Source of the DNA: Patescibacteria group bacterium
Lineage (GTDB): Bacteria > Patescibacteriota > Patescibacteriia > UBA10025 > JAHIVO01
Direction of reading: 5' to 3'
NCBI GenBank assembly: GCA_043808365.1
Contig: JAZDEZ010000021.1
Span: 128,403-192,402 of the forward strand
DNA length: 64,000 bases
Position numbers and translations under genes: made by a program. Within the stretch, counting starts at the first letter, position 1; every line of letters starts with the position of its first letter. The notes under the pieces were generated by a model. The model was not told the origin of the DNA. It did not search any database and saw nothing but the letters and a program-made list of their open reading frames with translations. Below are positions 27,924-63,860 of this stretch, piece after piece.

Positions 27924-28274
27924 ATAGATTATTGTAGCATTTGATTTTTAGAAAAACAAAGTGTGCTGGTGCTTGGAAGACTGATGCTGCCCGAGATATT
28001 TTTAGGAGCATGTTGCCCGGCGGCGGTTTCATCGTCCCGGGTAGCGCTGGCGTGCCACCGGCACCCCGACGGCGTTTCCCTTCGATCCACTTCGTTCACT
28101 CAGGGTCACTGCTACCGCTCAACTTCCTCTGTCTGGGTACTTCAAAAAAAATTCTACTCCCGTAAAGGGGATGAAAATTTTTCTGGGGTGGCCATCGGCC
28201 CCGCTATTCAGCGGGATTTCACTATTTGTTTTGATATTTGTTTTTAAGAATTGCACCCGAACTAGGAGTGCCAC

Positions 28275-28318: not shown

Positions 28319-28359
28319 AGGCAGACCTTAATATTTTTTATTACAAAAATCACCCCAGG

Positions 28360-28432
28360 GGTGGCTAGAGAGATTTGAACTCTCGTCACCGGTGCCACAG
28401 ACCAGTGCACTAACCACTGTGCTATAGCCACC
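28360..28432 (-). tRNA. tRNA-His (GTG)
   Basis: Cloverleaf read by eye with anticodon loop CTGTGGC, an extra 5' G(-1), T-arm GAGAG-TTCAAAT-CTCTC. CCA is not encoded. Confidence 0.9.
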
Positions 28433-28562
28433 ACTGGGGTGACTTGTGATTTAATATAAGTTGGGCGTAGAACCCGTAAATACTCTTGGTGCGGACGACC
28501 CCGGATAAGTCGCTTCGCTCCTGTACGGGGCAAGGAGGATTGCTACTGAGTCGTTGCTAAAA

Positions 28563-35257: not shown

Positions 35258-35333
35258 TGGTGCGCGCAGAAGGAATCGAACCTTCAACCTTAGGCTTAAG
35301 AGGCCTCTGCTCTGCCAATTGAGCTATGCGCGC
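35258..35333 (-). tRNA. tRNA-Lys (CTT)
   Basis: Anticodon loop CTCTTAA and T-arm GAAGG-TTCGATT-CCTTC. CCA is encoded. Confidence 0.9.
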
Positions 35334-35341
35334 ACGAGTTA

Positions 35342-35593
35342 TTAGCTAGTTATAGCGTCTCGATATTGTCGTTTCAATAATCGCCTGCCTTCCGTTGTTT
35401 TAAGAAATCGTTCTCTGCGCTCGGCATCACTTTTTAATTGATACGCTTCATATCCGATTAATGTTAGTGGACGGTATGACCGAGTTGAAGTGACGTGGCC
35501 GCGTTGGTGTTCGCCATATCTTTCCTTCAGTCTCTGAGTTAGCCCTTTATAAATATTATTATTTGATAACCTTAAGAAATAGACGAAGTACAT
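35342..35593 (-). CDS. GIY-YIG nuclease-domain protein (UPF0213-like)
   Basis: 83 aa with YFVYFLRLSNNNIYKGLT...R..EH motifs. It ends 8 nt upstream of tRNA-Lys. Confidence 0.75.
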   Translation of the reverse strand: MYFVYFLRLSNNNIYKGLTQRLKERYGEHQRGHVTSTRSYRPLTLIGYEAYQLKSDAERRERFLKTTEGRRLLKRQYRDAITS

Positions 35594-35703
35594 ATTTTTC
35601 TGTTAAGGGAATCGCCCGGCCATGCGACCGGGCAGCTATAGGCGCATGAATGCTGGTAGTGTAGCAAAAATGAAAGTTTTTTTCTAGGACCTGTACTGAT
35701 TTA

Positions 35704-36240
35704 TTATAACAGTTTTAAATAATCCAGCCCCAAATACCCTACTTCAATATCAGTCAGTTTTCCGCTCCTCAGCAGATCACGGAATTCACCCAAAGGCATT
35801 AATACAACATCGGCGAATTCCGTTTCATCCAATGTTTGTTTTGCGGCTTTTTCACATTCGGTGGCCACTAAACAATATCTGTTCATGGTTGAATAGGCGC
35901 AATCCAGAGCGGTCGTTACTAATGTAACTTTTCCGCGATATCCGGTTTCTTCCAATAATTCTCTGGTAGCGGTCTGTATGGGAGTTTCGCCAGGTTCGAG
36001 AAAACCGCCGGGAATTTCATTAAGGATTTTTTTGGGACCCGGCCGAAATTGTTTGACAAGAATTACTTCTTTATTTGTGGTTAGGGCCAGGATACCGACA
36101 GCGGGTCCTTCTTTCTTGATATAAAAATCACTTTCTTTATTATCAGGCAGTCGGAAGACGACTTTCTCGATTTTTCGGCTGTATTTTTGCCAGATTACTT
36201 CTCGGGATAATTCTTCCCATTTTTGTATTTTTTTATTCAT
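35704..36240 (-). CDS. NUDIX hydrolase (ADP-ribose pyrophosphatase-like)
   Basis: Nudix box GGFLEPGETPIQTATRELLEETG. I use the ATG at 36240. Confidence 0.8.
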   Translation of the reverse strand: MNKKIQKWEELSREVIWQKYSRKIEKVVFRLPDNKESDFYIKKEGPAVGILALTTNKEVILVKQFRPGPKKILNEIPGGFLEPGETPIQTATRELLEETGYRGKVTLVTTALDCAYSTMNRYCLVATECEKAAKQTLDETEFADVVLMPLGEFRDLLRSGKLTDIEVGYLGLDYLKLL

Positions 36241-36295
36241 GATTATTTTAATAAATATGCTGGTATCCCCACTTGTCCCGCCATTCGCTGCGCTC

Positions 36296-36463
36296 GGCGG
36301 GATTTTCACTTCGTTTTGAGAATCTCCGCCTCATGCCAGGGGCAGATGAGCCTCAGGCTCAAGAGGCGGACCCCGCCCTACTTTATTTATTTAATATTTG
36401 TGGCGGGGGAACCAAGATGTCTAGCTTCCGCCTTCGCCCTCATGCAGTTCGGGCTTCGGCGGA
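36296..36463. repeat. cluster of three or four GC-rich palindromic elements with TCCGCC...GGCGGA ends
   Basis: 36296-36330: GGCGGGATT...AATCTCCGCC. 36325-36370: TCCGCC...GGCGGA. 36427-36463: TCCGCCTTC-GCCC TCATGCAGTTC GGGC-TTCGGCGGA. Confidence 0.75.
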
Positions 36464-36578: not shown

Positions 36579-36604
36579 TCGTCAGGCGAGTCGGGCGGGT
36601 ATCC

Positions 36605-36655
36605 GCTCCGACGCTTTGGTCGGAGCCCCGACTATTACGTCGGGGTTGAACTATA
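36605..36655 (-). promoter_or_regulatory. tandem CCGAC hairpin leader module upstream of tRNA-Arg
   Basis: Plus strand reads GCTCCGAC-GCTTTG-GTCGGAGC, then CCCGAC-TATTAC-GTCGGG, then TTGAACTATA. The same layout occurs at 62874-62939. Confidence 0.6.
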
Positions 36656-36666
36656 GGGACTTATTT

Positions 36667-37164
36667 TTATTGGGACAATGCACGCTTGATGATCGTGATA
36701 TTGTCCTTTTTTAATGAATTGTAGAATTTTATTTTGCTAACACGGCGGATATCTATCCATTCCGGTTTTTGCGCATATTCATGCTCTTGGCCAACAAGAT
36801 TTTTATCCGTAATTGTGCCGCTAGTTCTTTTGCAGAGGAAGTAGATGCAAATAGCGTGGACTGACTGCTTATGGTTGCGAAATGTAAAGAAAGAGGATGA
36901 GCACCAGAGGGGCGGGCCGACGCTAACTTTTAAACCGGTTTCTTCCCAGAATTCACGCTTCAATGTCTGTTCGACCGTTTCGTGTTTGTATCCGCCTCCG
37001 CCAGGGAAATCGTATCCATCCCATTGCCTCGAAAGTAAGACTTTGCCTTTTTCAATTAGCACTCCATAAATTGATGGCCGATACGTTAATTTTTTAACTG
37101 GTACACGTTTCAGGTTCCAGAACACGTCATGGCAGATAATAGTTTTTGGCGAAGTGTTTGGCAT
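36667..37164 (-). CDS. NUDIX hydrolase
   Basis: Nudix box GGGGYKHETVEQTLKREFWEETG. ATG at 37164 is preferred to the TTG at 37206. Confidence 0.75.
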   Translation of the reverse strand: MPNTSPKTIICHDVFWNLKRVPVKKLTYRPSIYGVLIEKGKVLLSRQWDGYDFPGGGGYKHETVEQTLKREFWEETGLKVSVGPPLWCSSSFFTFRNHKQSVHAICIYFLCKRTSGTITDKNLVGQEHEYAQKPEWIDIRRVSKIKFYNSLKKDNITIIKRALSQ

Positions 37165-37257
37165 AATGATCCCGCTGAATGTATCAGTAAAATATGTCCC
37201 CGTCAACTAGTATATATTGTACTTCGCGATGCCAAACAAAGCAAAGTCACCCACTTC

Positions 37258-56790: not shown

Positions 56791-56816
56791 CGCTCCAGCG
56801 CTATAGCGCTGGAGCG
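56791..56816. repeat. perfect 11-bp-arm palindrome
   Basis: CGCTCCAGCGC-TATA-GCGCTGGAGCG. Confidence 0.85.
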
Positions 56817-56924
56817 GGTGAGTCCTTCGACTTCGCTCAGGATAAACTCCTTCGAACCGCCGACCTCTTCCCCCGCCTGCCAGAGCCTAGATTAATCCCG
56901 GTAAAGCTATTGTTGATTTGGAAA

Positions 56925-56996
<72 letters not shown>

Positions 56997-57015
56997 ATTT
57001 TTTCATTGGTTTTTA

Positions 57016-57079
57016 CTCTTGCCTTGGGGCGGCGGGCAGGTTGGCAAGGAAGCGTTCTACCGCTGAACTACTACTCTCC
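57016..57079 (-). pseudogene. diverged 5' fragment of a tRNA-Gly(GCC)-like gene
   Basis: Minus strand reads GGAGAGTAGTAGTTCAGCGGTAGAACGCTTCCTTGCCAA, then CCTGCCCGCCGCCCC, then AAGGCAAGAG. There is no T-arm or 3' acceptor strand. Confidence 0.7.
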
Positions 57080-57225: not shown

Positions 57226-57300
57226 TGGAGGCCACGGGCGGATTCGAACCGCCGCATAAGGGTTTTGCAGACCCTTGCCTTACCACTTGGCTACGTGGCC
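57226..57300 (-). tRNA. tRNA-Cys (GCA)
   Basis: Anticodon loop CTGCAAA and T-arm GGCGG-TTCGAAT-CCGCC. CCA is encoded. Confidence 0.9.
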
Positions 57301-57381
57301 TTATAAAAATTAGATTGTCAAAAGGTCTCTTGCTACTTGCCTGCCCCGCCGAATGGCGGGGGCTATCACGCCGTTTAAATT

Positions 57382-57572
57382 GGGTTTTGTCCCGCGCTCT
57401 AATATTATTTTACTGTTGCGCGGGATCCCGCCGGAATTTATCCCGTCGAATGACGGGATGGCGGGACAGACCCTTGCCTTACCACTTGGCTACGTGGCCT
57501 TACTAAAATTGGATTGTTAAAAAGGTTTCTTACTACTTGCTTGCCCCGCCGAATGGCGGGGGCTATCACGCC
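57382..57572 (-). pseudogene. truncated, insert-bearing upstream copy of tRNA-Cys with duplicated 73-nt upstream region
   Basis: Positions 1-34 (57467-57499, identical to the real gene) are followed by the 77-nt inserts, then CAAAACCC (57382-57389), after which similarity is lost. Confidence 0.8.
57390..57466. repeat. two tandem hairpin inserts with TCCCGC...GCGGGA ends
   Basis: 57390-57425: TCCCGCGC-20 nt-GCGCGGGA. 57426-57466: TCCCGCC-27 nt (containing the inner hairpin ATCCCGTC-GAAT-GACGGGAT)-GGCGGGA. Confidence 0.8.
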
Positions 57573-57642
57573 AATTGGCTATCGGGCTACATGTGCGTAT
57601 AGATATGGTATCAATCCAGGGGCACTTTATCAAGGGTTGGCT

Positions 57643-57671
57643 AAAAATAAACCCCGCTCTAGAAAGCGGGA
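57643..57671 (-). terminator. rho-independent terminator of the 3D-domain gene
   Basis: CCCGCT-CTAGAA-AGCGGG. The minus strand is followed by a T-rich run. Confidence 0.65.
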
Positions 57672-57685
57672 TTTGTTGGTATTTA

Positions 57686-58183
57686 TTAGAGTATTTCCAT
57701 CTTGATATGTCTGACCCCCCACTGTATTGCCAGTTCTCGGGAAGGCATCCAGATGTCCGCTCGTTTATTGAATCGGGCAGCCATCCGGTCTTCTACGATG
57801 AAAATTTTATCGCCAAACTGGTCAGGGAACCGGACTTTCGTACCGATCGGTAGGAAGTTAGCGGCAATAATACCATCACGCACTTGCGTACCCGATGCGG
57901 TGGTGAATGGCGTGCTTCCGCATTGGTCTGCTGTTGAGGAGTAGGCAGTAACGGTAAGATTGACCGTTTTTTTAGCAATTGGTTGTGGACGATCAGGGGT
58001 TTCTGGCAACCGGGCAACAACAGCCGGGGCGATTTGGACGGCGTCTTCTTGCTGGATGATTTTCATAGGCTCGATTGCTGCTTGCGCCAGCGCCAAATGC
58101 GGAAATGCAAATTCAAAAGTAAAGATAGATAGGACGATTATTGTTATGTATTTGATTTTTCTGAGAATAATTTGATTGATCAT
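57686..58183 (-). CDS. 3D-domain (MltA/RlpA-like DPBB) secreted protein
   Basis: Signal anchor, then VTAYSS....CG..P.TASG...R.G.IAAN.LP.GT... Confidence 0.75.
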   Translation of the reverse strand: MINQIILRKIKYITIIVLSIFTFEFAFPHLALAQAAIEPMKIIQQEDAVQIAPAVVARLPETPDRPQPIAKKTVNLTVTAYSSTADQCGSTPFTTASGTQVRDGIIAANFLPIGTKVRFPDQFGDKIFIVEDRMAARFNKRADIWMPSRELAIQWGVRHIKMEIL

Positions 58184-59911: not shown

Positions 59912-59945
59912 AGCGGGTAGGTTTGTAGTAGTTTAATCCTTATTG

Positions 59946-60016
59946 AGCGGGTAGGGAGAATCGAACTCCCGGCAACAGGTTGGAAACCTGTGGTATTACC
60001 ACTATACGATACCCGC
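59946..60016 (-). tRNA. tRNA-Gly (TCC)
   Basis: Anticodon loop TTTCCAA and T-arm GGGAG-TTCGATT-CTCCC. CCA is not encoded. It is flanked by perfect 9-bp complementary leader and trailer (59938-59946 and 60017-60025). Confidence 0.9.
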
Positions 60017-60109
60017 TCAATAAGGATTAATTGTTGTAATGTATTTATGTAAAGGGAATCCCCGCCAAAGGCGGGTCCGCCCCCATTTGATTTGATATCG
60101 GTGGGCGGA

Positions 60110-60289
60110 GAACTCCCGGCAACAGGTTGTCCCGCAACGATGAGACGAACGAAGTGAGTCCATCCTGTTGCGAGGATCCACGCCCCGCCATTCGGCGGTG
60201 CGGGAGAAACCTGTGGTATTACCACTATACGATACCCGCTCAATAAGGATTAATTGTTGTAATGTATTTATGTAAAGGGAATCCCCGCC
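60110..60289 (-). pseudogene. upstream pseudo-copy of tRNA-Gly(TCC) with a 76-nt insert in the anticodon and a lost 3' end
   Basis: An exact 84-bp repeat (60206-60289 equals 59983-60066) covers the leader plus tRNA positions 1-35. A 76-nt insert at 60130-60205 (TCCCGCA...TGCGGGA) follows, then positions 36-55 (60110-60129), then the unrelated hairpin 60076-60109. Confidence 0.85.
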
Positions 60290-62700: not shown

Positions 62701-62775
62701 AATTATTGAGATTATTTGTCGGGGTGCCTGGCCCCGGATCTAGTCCGGGGGAACCGGGAACCTCTCTGCCCTATA

Positions 62776-62849
62776 TCGGGGATGCGAGACTCGAACTCGC
62801 GACCTCCTGCTCCCAAAGCAGGCGCGCTAGCCAACTGCGCTAATCCCCG
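62776..62849 (-). tRNA. tRNA-Pro (TGG)
   Basis: C1:G72 pair, anticodon loop TTTGGGA and T-arm GCGAG-TTCGAGT-CTCGC. CCA is not encoded. It is flanked by GCCCTATAT and ATATAGGGC. Confidence 0.9.
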
Positions 62850-62873
62850 ATATAGGGCGGGACGCTCTAGCTA

Positions 62874-62939
62874 ATCCCGACGTCCGAAATAAAAATAATT
62901 GAGTCGGGATCCCGACCATAGCGTCGGGACTGAACTACA
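62874..62939 (-). promoter_or_regulatory. tandem CCGAC hairpin leader module upstream of tRNA-Pro
   Basis: Plus strand reads ATCCCGAC-21 nt-GTCGGGAT, then TCCCGAC-CATAGC-GTCGGGA, then CTGAACTACA. Confidence 0.6.
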
Positions 62940-63201
62940 CCCCGTTAGAAATTTTAGAATAATTCTTAAGCCTGTTTTTTAAAAAGCGTTTGCCCATTCC
63001 AGATTTTCAATACTTTTCTCGAGCCCGTGCGTCAGTTTCATTCCCGCAAGCCTCATAGTATGCCAGGATCATGGGTAAACGCAACCTAGTTGAGTAAACT
63101 TTGCCAGAATTATGTTCTTTCACTCTATTTTGTAAATTATTTGAATAACCAGTATAGAGTCCTTTATCCTTTTTACTTAACAATACGTATGTATAATACA
63201 T
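62935..63201 (-). pseudogene. GIY-YIG nuclease-domain gene with in-frame TGA
   Basis: MYYTYVLLSKKDKGLYTGYSNNL..R..EHN...REKY-TGA-KSGMGKRFLKNRLKNYSKISNGV*. The TGA at 63007-63009 is where the paralog at 35342 has Leu. Confidence 0.7.
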
Positions 63202-63217
63202 AAATTTCTAACGGGGA
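62940..63217. mobile_element. 278-bp unit made of the GIY-YIG ORF bounded by 15-bp inverted repeats
   Basis: CCCCGTTAGAAATTT at 62940-62954 has its reverse complement AAATTTCTAACGGGG at 63203-63217. The core CCCCGTTAGAAA matches the 4572-4679 element. Confidence 0.55.
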
Positions 63218-63224
63218 CACCCCG

Positions 63225-63764: not shown

Positions 63765-63860
63765 GATTTTCAGTCCGGAGACCTGCCCCGCACACGAGCG
63801 CAGTGAGTGTTGCGGGGGTCTACCACTGAGCCTGCCTGCCGGCAGGCAGGCTACCTCGGC
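63765..63860 (-). pseudogene. insert-riddled 5' fragment of tRNA-Phe
   Basis: GCCGAGGTAGC, then [CTGCCTGCCGGCAGGCAGG], then CTCAGTGGTAGA, then [a roughly 39-nt insert with CCCCGCA...TGCGGGG arms], then CCGGACTGAAAATC. Similarity then ends. Confidence 0.7.

Follow-up and report, generated by a model that had tools for sequence, protein, structure and literature searches.

A truncated tRNA-Cys copy in a Patescibacteria genome as a candidate relic of a tRNA-splitting GIY-YIG cassette

How does an intact tRNA gene come to stand behind a broken copy of its own first half? The question is raised by a tRNA-Cys locus on the minus strand of contig JAZDEZ010000021.1 (assembly GCA_043808365.1), in a 64-kb stretch of DNA called the window here; its flanking genes, for a D-Ala-D-Ala ligase, a SpoU methylase, and a 3D-domain protein, place the window in the Patescibacteria. 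The orphan half is best read as a relic rather than a second gene. In the reading that we favor, with a probability of about 0.58, it is the outer 5' half that was left when a cassette with its own intact tRNA-Cys split and replaced the resident tRNA-Cys. To judge from sequence, the orphan, its hairpin pair, and the following CAAAACCC are built like the outer 5' half seen in a widespread composite of a GIY-YIG gene and tRNA-Cys. The reading is favored because the hairpin-pair module between tRNA positions 34 and 35, followed by CAAAAC, recurs with GIY-YIG genes in distant genomes and because an empty and occupied pair of loci, L022 and L053, breaks at G34 (loci of relatives are designated by L and a number).

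Anatomy of the duplicated tRNA-Cys locus

An earlier note on this DNA had described a 106-nt unit, made of 73 nt of upstream sequence and the 5' part of tRNA-Cys, that occurs twice on the minus strand, at 57467 to 57572 (unit A) and 57268 to 57372 (unit B). Both units were confirmed as direct repeats with an offset of 199 to 200 nt, and a MAFFT alignment returned the same counts of 7 substitutions and 1 indel upstream and none in the 33-nt tRNA part (standard positions 1 to 34, position 17 being absent). All eight differences fall in a stretch of 43 nt, bounded by a hairpin and by tRNA position 1. The drift that had been ascribed to the 73 nt is thus real, but their first 30 nt are as invariant as the tRNA part, and the differences are clustered (8/43 versus 0/63; Fisher p = 4.8e-4). 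The tRNA part alone is weak evidence: with change there open to the orphan copy only, the expected number of differences is about 3, and the probability of finding none is about 0.05.

The upstream 73 nt (F1) are, as their layout indicates, an older, hairpin-interrupted tRNA-Cys 5' fragment and not ordinary flanking DNA. Two tRNA-Cys alleles occur at these loci, T1, which starts GGCCACG..AAGTGGTA and is found in the window, and T2, which starts GGCGTGA..AAGTAGTA and is used by L020, L021, and L049. F1 begins with GGCGTGATAGCC, the first 12 nt of T2, and continues with the hairpin CCCGCCATTCGGCGGGG, CAAGC, AAGTAGTAAG (the T2 D loop), and a decayed tail. Its oddity, a hairpin plus CAAG inserted after position 11, recurs in L050, L027, L030, L037, and L051, as does the layout of head, hairpin, and CAAGCAAGT. 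A target-site duplication around the D-stem hairpin was considered and rejected, since CAAG is insert sequence that is also present in a tRNA-Gly fragment of L020.

After G34, copy A continues with a 77-nt insert (57390 to 57466) of two perfect-stem hairpins of 41 and 36 nt, placed between positions 34 and 35 as the earlier note had it. The insert has a fold z-score of -7.2, none of 200 shuffles being equally stable, and is predicted to form a closed three-way junction with the anticodon stem (z = -6 to -7). The copy then resumes with CAAAACCC (positions 35 to 42), after which similarity to the tRNA stops; 9 nt later the second F1 copy begins, followed by the working gene. The start of hairpin 1, TCCCGCCAT, is common to L050, and the nested hairpin CCCGTCATTCGACGGG is found there in the D loop of the fragment. 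In a BLAST search of the insert against the window and all loci, the sole match was the L050 orthologue, so that the insert is not a high-copy repeat. Copy A with its insert had no match to any intron, ribozyme, or leader family of Rfam at the gathering threshold or at an E value of ≤10, and tRNA calls were obtained on the downstream copy only (ARAGORN; Rfam RF00005, 70.5 bits).

The sole promoter-like site of the locus (Table 1) lies upstream of every fragment, and in L020, L048, and L049 the corresponding TTGAAA-17-TACCAT stands directly before tRNA-Cys. No second promoter-like site was found inside the fragment array; both units therefore belong to a single pre-tRNA leader. In its predicted minimum-energy fold, the orphan acceptor strand competes with the real one for the tRNA 3' end.

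The hairpin module and GIY-YIG genes in other Patescibacteria

What the earlier note had overlooked is that most tRNA genes of the window show this arrangement and that it matches a GIY-YIG-associated composite of other Patescibacteria. The module of tRNA-Cys positions 1 to 34, a TC..GA hairpin pair, and positions 35 to 42 or 47 is present in L051, L053, L055, L056, and L058, five loci of distant Patescibacteria with differing gene neighborhoods; L050 shares the hairpin pair, and L021 and L008 have a single hairpin. CAAAAC(C) also follows the single hairpin of L021, and the L050 contig ends at CAA. In four of the five module loci (L053, L055, L056, and L058) an open reading frame (ORF) for a GIY-YIG protein (PF01541) of about 80 amino acids lies between the module and an intact tRNA-Cys. 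Each of the four ORFs starts at the variable-loop ATG of the tRNA. Three of them (L053, L055, and L056) end inside the intact replacement tRNA-Cys, and that of L058 stops about 20 nt before the inner tRNA-Cys.

L022 and L053 form an empty and occupied pair, about 93% identical upstream through tRNA-Cys position 34, with identity lost exactly after G34. After this point L022 has an intact T2 gene, whereas L053 has two 15-nt hairpins (TCTGGCTACGCCAGA and TCTCGCGCAGCGAGA), CAAAAC, an 82-amino-acid GIY-YIG ORF whose TAG stop occupies tRNA positions 8 to 10, and an intact T1 tRNA-Cys; similarity between the two returns only at tRNA-Gly. The 71 homologues of the L053 protein are all small PF01541 proteins from Patescibacteria metagenomes. 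About 24 of them end in ..VAK[W/R/Q], as read in frame from GTA GCC AAG TGG TAA (tRNA-Cys positions 7 to 21), and about 14 end in xA[T/R/..] (GCC ACG TAG), the other reading frame. To judge from these C-terminal ends, translation runs on into a tRNA-Cys gene in at least half of the clade, and the stop codon of most members falls within the first 10 to 21 nt of the replacement tRNA-Cys.

The full structure, seen in L055, L056, and L058, consists of the outer positions 1 to 34, the hairpin pair, positions 35 to 47, the GIY-YIG gene, an inner tRNA-Cys with an acceptor stem that differs from that of the outer one, and an outer 3' piece. The acceptor strand of this last piece fits the outer 5' half in L056, does so less clearly in L058, where the T loop of the piece also holds hairpins, and does not do so in L055. 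In L055, a block of GGTCTG, hairpins, and CAAAAC stands on both sides of the unit formed by the ORF and the tRNA. Removal of the inserts in silico gave cloverleaf tRNA-Cys for L056 and tRNA-Pro for L024 and a flawless tRNA-Gly(GCC) for L051. A gene for a large serine recombinase (Resolvase, Recombinase, and Zn_ribbon domains) on the opposite strand of L056 (1875 to 3324) and L058 (1936 to 3243) overlaps or lies just beyond the tRNA-Cys/tRNA-Leu pair that bears the composite, and this locus may also be an integration site.

Other tRNA identities have comparable composites. All five GIY-YIG ORFs in the loci examined for this (the window, L027, L016, and L053) lie immediately 5' of a co-oriented tRNA, and in front of four of them stands a clear, short 5' copy of the tRNA concerned; at L016 (tRNA-Cys) the match is only 9/10. 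In L027 (7080 to 7440), an 8-nt copy of the tRNA-Pro 5' end is followed by a GIY-YIG ORF immediately adjoining tRNA-Pro. The GIY-YIG gene at the tRNA-Pro of the window ends in the TAG of a broken tRNA-Pro fragment with two hairpins, after which a different, intact tRNA-Pro allele follows. The GIY-YIG proteins have 64 to 107 amino acids, and PF01541 is the sole domain detected in them.

The hairpins themselves were compared across loci. Over six loci, 95.8% of the cells of the two stems at 34/35 are paired (long loops were trimmed in three rows), and 4 of 12 pairs are changed on both sides, which none of 500 shuffles matched. Because palindromes are self-complementary by origin, this covariation is not proof of RNA function. 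The stems follow the pattern TCYSGC..GCSRGA, so that adjacent hairpins meet at GATC. Loop insertions in the hairpin module reach 58 nt. The same mini-hairpins occupy D-loop, anticodon-loop, and T-loop positions in both loop orientations, ATTC and GAAT versions of one stem both occurring, and can be nested in one another; CCCGCCATTCGGCGGG occurs three times in the window, once inverted. Three candidate origins were rejected: a CRISPR-like homing spacer, since its flanking repeats differ from each other; insertion of the IS200/IS605 type behind a constant tetranucleotide, since the targets differ (GTAGC, AAGT, TCTG, TTTC, and GTTC); and fold-back repair copying the flank, since the hairpin arms do not derive from flanking sequence.

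Presence and decay of the orphan half in relatives

At four-fold degenerate sites of the 3D-domain gene, the window, L020, L021, L048, L049, and L050 are only 31 to 49% identical, so that neutral DNA is near saturation even among the nearest relatives. The earlier note had tied absence of the upstream copy from close relatives, together with lack of a transcript, to a neutral recent duplication, and the relatives proved polymorphic: in the clean loci L048, L049, and L020, tRNA-Cys comes straight after the promoter (T1 in one and T2 in two of them), but the window, L050, and L021 are occupied.

The occupied loci have not kept the orphan intact. L050 has the array of F1, orphan half, and hairpins of the window, but its orphan half has an extra D-loop hairpin and extra bases, and its F1 tail cannot be aligned with that of the window. 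The orphan 5' half of L021 has one hairpin at 34/35 and 2 substitutions, and that of L008 a single hairpin, 3 substitutions, and 1 deletion; decayed orphans are present in other lineages, L017 as well as L008. The exact 33-mer of the tRNA-Cys 5' half was found in 19 species belonging to several phyla, so that identity is what would be expected of any two copies with functional genes as their source. The pristine orphan of the window was probably derived recently from a functional gene or overwritten by gene conversion, and its identity probably does not stem from selection on the orphan, because the orthologous fragment is decayed in L050, L021, and L008. Of the two explanations that the earlier note had offered for the asymmetry, gene conversion or other recombination is accordingly the better one, and long-term selection on the orphan is not borne out.

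A proposed split and replacement of the tRNA gene

Under the cassette model, the element would be ordered as follows: resident promoter, resident tRNA-Cys positions 1 to 34, a TC..GA hairpin pair in the anticodon loop, positions 35 to 47, an ORF for a GIY-YIG protein of about 80 amino acids, an intact tRNA-Cys with another acceptor stem, and often a displaced old 3' piece. The GIY-YIG protein would cut unoccupied tRNA genes as a homing-type nuclease, and the element would spread by break repair, with the outer tRNA pieces as homology; we infer both mobility and nuclease activity from sequence. In unit A, everything up to G34 would be resident and everything after it would have arrived with the element, whose ORF would since have been lost, leaving an orphan without function for the cell. 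The eight differences between the units would be donor-recipient divergence at unconstrained sites in the tail of the older fragment. The asymmetry would need no function of the orphan, since the tRNA part would be copied from or converted by a functional gene and the tail is unconstrained. Lying between a single promoter and the mature tRNA, the array would be transcribed as a pre-tRNA leader and removed by RNase P.

Several points weigh against this model. No GIY-YIG ORF or remnant is present at the tRNA-Cys locus of the window, where every one of the 347 nt has been assigned, nor is there a displaced 3' piece downstream of the tRNA-Cys, so that the link of this copy to the cassette rests on shared architecture. 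A plain tandem duplication, a serious alternative, would also duplicate the leader and 5' half. The model gives no account of the origin and role of the hairpins, and the proteins of about 80 amino acids that would act as nucleases have no recognizable DNA-binding domain. In L055, L056, and L058 the neighborhood is infB-(rbfA)-element-tRNA-Leu, a synteny that looks like long residence rather than frequent movement. Finally, hairpin 2, the F1 head, and a T-loop hairpin in a tRNA-Gly(UCC) fragment are conserved despite saturated synonymous sites; there could be selection on parts of the array, and these conserved blocks could be functional.

Alternative explanations

The strongest competitor, which we nevertheless regard as unlikely, is a plain local history without a cassette, in which a microhomology-mediated tandem duplication of the old fragment plus positions 1 to 42 was followed by insertion of GC-rich palindromes into the dead copy. 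The leader and 5' half do form a head-to-tail repeat, whose junction shows CC/AATT microhomology. In the loci compared, the density of perfect GC-rich hairpins is about 9 times as high within 300 nt of tRNA genes as it is farther away, and the same palindromes appear in different contexts. When one end of a partial tandem duplication falls in an essential gene, what remains beside the intact copy is always an upstream 5' piece or a downstream 3' piece. This is the direction seen in 25 of 25 partial copies scored in the window and the relatives' loci, every upstream piece being a 5' part and every downstream piece a 3' part; because one end lies inside an essential gene, tandem duplication alone explains this bias. 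The same direction also counts in favor of the cassette model. Such a history leaves unexplained, however, why a two-hairpin insert with CAAAAC stands at the same site, 34/35, across saturated divergence and differing synteny, why a GIY-YIG ORF fills that slot in four genomes, and why the alleles of the outer and inner genes differ.

A selected structured leader RNA, acting as a pre-tRNA processing or stability element or as a tRNA-like scaffold and 5' untranslated region for a nuclease mRNA, appears improbable. It would accord with the mosaic conservation on a saturated background: hairpin 2 is identical at 33 of 36 positions between the window and L050, including its AT-rich loop, compared with only 36% at four-fold sites of the neighboring gene; the F1 head and CAAGCAAGTAGTA are identical, with adjacent blocks unalignable; and 35 of 37 positions agree between the window and L020 in the T-loop hairpin of the tRNA-Gly(UCC) fragment. 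The covariation and the fold z-scores given above point the same way. Yet L048, L049, L020, L052, and L054 do entirely without the array, the tRNA-like parts decay in L050, L021, and L008, the covariation of palindromes is not decisive and loop orientation is not kept, and the predicted competition of the orphan acceptor strand for the tRNA 3' end would be harmful rather than useful.

We consider it most improbable that copy A is part of an intron-containing or split tRNA-Cys from which the insert is removed at the RNA level. Group I introns are reported in the anticodon loop of Patescibacteria tRNAs at site 35/36 (PMC13011429), in the same phylum and loop as the inserts described here and at a neighboring site (34/35 and 35/36 here); the predicted fold is a closed three-way junction, and the outer tRNA-Gly of L051 is perfect around its insert. 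Against this, copy A lacks positions 43 to 76 and adjoins an intact gene, from which function would come; the insert, at 77 nt (19 to 77 nt over all such inserts), is too small for a group I core, and neither RF00028 nor any other Rfam intron was matched at the threshold given above; the predicted junction has no bulge-helix-bulge geometry and no 3-nt bulges; and the intron mode of ARAGORN found nothing. An assembly artefact that joined two strain variants of the locus one behind the other would fit eight differences of the kind seen between strain alleles in a metagenome-assembled contig but is scarcely credible, given that the F1, orphan half, and hairpin part is present in the independent assembly of L050, that L051 follows the same logic (fragment, AT-rich spacer, second fragment, and gene), and that analogous arrays occur in more than 12 assemblies from different projects.

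Fragments around other tRNA genes

Arrangements read as fractured and replaced tRNA genes are present in the window genome for several tRNA identities. At least 8 of the 11 tRNA genes in the window carry fragments of their own identity, 5' pieces upstream and 3' pieces downstream, with GC-rich hairpins (Table 1). The tRNA-Gly(GCC) gene is nested in a split gene of the same identity, and the 3' end of the outer gene is identical to that of the normal gene of L048 and L020 and likewise abuts the SpoU gene. In L051 (3610 to 3860) the insert termini and the site, 38/39, are the same, and the outer gene, decayed in the window, is flawless. The termini, CCTGCCCGCC.. and ..GGCAGGCGGG, are conserved and able to pair, and the insert has no ORF. 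The tRNA-Gly(UCC) of the window (59913 to 60285, minus strand) is preceded by a leader, positions 1 to 35, a 76-nt insert, positions 36 to 55, and two hairpins. Its insert at 35/36 is unrelated to that of L020 (200 to 500), and L021 (3110 to 3335) has a tRNA-Gly(UCC) duplicate without an anticodon insert.

The tRNA-Phe of the window is preceded by a copy interrupted by two palindromes; tRNA-Arg has broken 5' and 3' pieces, and tRNA-His a 3' piece. Within 28185 to 28262, 36265 to 36420, and 36579 to 36655 (minus strand), 3' pieces that end in CCA, each after a GC hairpin, are found downstream of tRNA-His and tRNA-Arg, and the broken 5' piece of tRNA-Arg is found upstream of it; two NUDIX paralogues (35704 to 36309 and 36667 to 37206) flank tRNA-Arg. 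A 19-nt palindrome, CTGCCTRCCGGCAGGCAGG, follows GTAGC (position 11) both in the tRNA-Phe fragment of the window (63830 to 63851) and in a tRNA-Pro fragment of L024 (321 to 342), two distant genomes whose 3D-domain proteins are about 54% identical.

Table 1. Features of the tRNA-Cys locus and of other tRNA loci. Coordinates are those of the window unless an L locus is named.
Feature	Position	Strand	Description
Intrinsic terminator of upstream 3D-domain gene (57686-58183)	57649..57674	-	11-bp stem, then T run; conserved in L050
Sole promoter-like site at tRNA-Cys locus	57605..57633	-	TTGATA, 17-nt spacer, TACCAT; TG precedes -10 box; sigma-70-like
Degenerate mini-fragment	57573..57590	-	GTAGCCCGATAGCCAATT, 18 nt, like tRNA-Cys positions 7-14; absent from L050
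F1A, old 5' fragment of second tRNA-Cys allele	57500..57572	-	GGCGTGATAGCC, hairpin CCCGCCATTCGGCGGGG, CAAGCAAGTAGTAAG, decayed tail
F2, orphan tRNA-Cys 5' half, positions 1-34	57467..57499	-	33/33 identical to real gene
Hairpin 1, between positions 34 and 35 (anticodon loop)	57426..57466	-	TCCCGCC..GGCGGGA, 41 nt, nested CCCGTCATTCGACGGG hairpin
Hairpin 2	57390..57425	-	TCCCGCGC..GCGCGGGA, 36 nt, AT-rich loop; 33/36 identical to L050
End of orphan copy, positions 35-42	57382..57389	-	CAAAACCC; CAAAAC(C) also after hairpin pair in L051, L053, L055, L056, L058
Junction of orphan copy and second unit	57373..57381	-	AATTTAAAC; microhomology CC/AATT matches sequence before F1A
F1B, second copy of old fragment	57301..57372	-	Immediate leader of real tRNA; from repeat alignment
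Intact tRNA-Cys(GCA)	57226..57300	-	Encoded CCA; ARAGORN, Rfam RF00005
tRNA-Lys composite	35258-35645	-	5' piece GCGCCTATAGCT and GC hairpin, 83-aa GIY-YIG ORF (35342-35593), intact tRNA-Lys(CUU)
tRNA-Pro composite	62775-63224	-	8-nt 5'-end copy (CGGGGYGT, hairpin), GIY-YIG ORF (62935-63201) with in-frame TGA (pseudogene)
tRNA-Gly(GCC) nested in split tRNA-Gly(GCC)	56810..57079	-	Outer 5' piece 57041-57079 (positions 1-38)
Nested tRNA-Gly(GCC), inner parts		-	Insert terminus CCTGCCCGCCGCCCC; intact inner gene 56925-56996; terminus GGCAGGCGGG 56872-56881
Nested tRNA-Gly(GCC), outer 3' piece (positions 39-76)	56851-56871 plus 56810-56821	-	
Leader/trailer complementary pairs	59925-59944 with 60017-60030; 28346-28357 with 28432-28442; 62767-62774 with 62851-62858		
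About 100-nt pre-tRNA element	L024 110-214, 1490-1592, 2600-2701; L054 3215-3325		

Some further features of tRNA leaders were observed. Many tRNAs have a complementary leader and trailer that extend the acceptor stem by 8 to 20 bp (also in L021, L024, and L030), with compensatory changes between the window (TTAATCCTTATTG/CAATAAGGATTAA) and L021 (AAGTCACATTG/CAATGTGACTT); this complementarity looks like a conserved pre-tRNA processing helix. In some relatives, a conserved element of about 100 nt, ..GAGGAGAAATAGTG..stem..CTATTTCGACGC, stands directly before several different tRNA genes and may be an undescribed structured leader. Upstream of the tRNA-Cys of L018 (4400 to 4600) are two tandem repeats of about 95 nt, which start with GGCCACGTA and a TCCCCTAAAGGGGA hairpin and end in GTGGCT, able to pair with their own start.

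Comparison with known systems

Free-standing GIY-YIG homing endonuclease genes are known next to their targets, an example being SegB in the tRNA gene cluster of phage T4 (PMC2330249; PMC13096335). As with SegB, a small GIY-YIG gene lies here among tRNA genes, is patchy in relatives, and has neighboring tRNA alleles replaced along with it. Unlike segB, the ORF described here lies inside a split tRNA gene, overlapping the old gene at its start and mostly the replacement gene at its stop; the protein has about 80 amino acids rather than more than 200, the host is a bacterial chromosome, and cleavage is proposed by analogy. I-TevI and the Seg proteins have a catalytic and a DNA-binding domain; in these proteins of 64 to 107 amino acids, only PF01541 was detected.

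Mobile endonuclease ORFs of mitochondria bring a replacement gene end with them and leave the old piece as a pseudogene; Allomyces atp6 is reportedly a case in which the displaced gene end is replaced. In fungal mitochondria, gene hybrids and small inverted repeats or double-hairpin elements at the edges of such ORFs have been described (PMC3787672, which cites Paquin et al. 2000). The likeness to the composites lies in a disrupted essential gene, a replacement carried along, an old piece left behind, and hairpin repeats at the ORF edges, whereas the target here is a tRNA gene and not a protein gene, replacement is of the whole gene, and the hairpins occupy loops of the old tRNA.

Integrating elements also leave tRNA gene fragments (PMC9897764), such as a tRNA-Thr 5' fragment with a recombinase element in Caldiarchaeum (PMC3293823). 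Those fragments are likewise partial copies in direct orientation beside an intact gene, the Caldiarchaeum 5' fragment lying upstream as here; classical attachment-site fragments are instead 3' pieces that flank kilobases of DNA with an integrase, unlike the 5' part found here about 200 nt from the gene. Among 27 window ORFs around the tRNA-Cys, -Gly, -Pro, -Phe, -Lys, -Arg, and -His loci that were scanned with Pfam, there was no integrase, transposase, or RAYT, and GIY-YIG was the sole mobile-element-type domain. The hairpins resemble palindromes of the repetitive extragenic palindrome (REP)/REPIN or miniature inverted-repeat transposable element (MITE) type in being short, GC rich, reused in noncoding DNA in both orientations, and sometimes nested. 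They differ from them in that the 64 kb contain no large near-identical family, the stems sharing only TCYSGC..GCSRGA or CCCC..GGGG, and in that they are concentrated in tRNA-derived sequence, with no transposase among the ORFs scanned. In the literature searched, no GIY-YIG gene is described as lying inside a split tRNA gene. By analogy, the logic would be that of free-standing homing endonucleases, and the nested split-tRNA arrangement would be new.

Implications for Patescibacteria

Beyond this one locus, we tentatively propose, as a possibility that falls short of even odds, an undescribed selfish element of Patescibacteria: a miniature GIY-YIG gene inside a fractured tRNA gene, which would use the tRNA promoter, have the old 5' half and hairpin pair as its 5' untranslated region, and travel with an intact, differently stemmed replacement tRNA. 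Repeated invasions would then drive tRNA allele turnover and layer fragments around the genes for tRNA-Cys, -Gly, -Pro, -Lys, -Phe, -Arg, and -His. In a bolder version, the outer halves would still pair, forming a tRNA scaffold that protects the nuclease mRNA. Since tRNA genes are single copy and essential in these reduced genomes, an element that breaks one must replace it. If true, the proposal would explain why close relatives have differing tRNA-Cys and tRNA-Gly alleles and why fragments that confuse annotation are scattered all over tRNA loci, and it would offer a testable nuclease-target pair in uncultivable bacteria. It would also provide a bacterial parallel to the splitting of archaeal tRNA genes and a natural example of an mRNA set within a tRNA frame.

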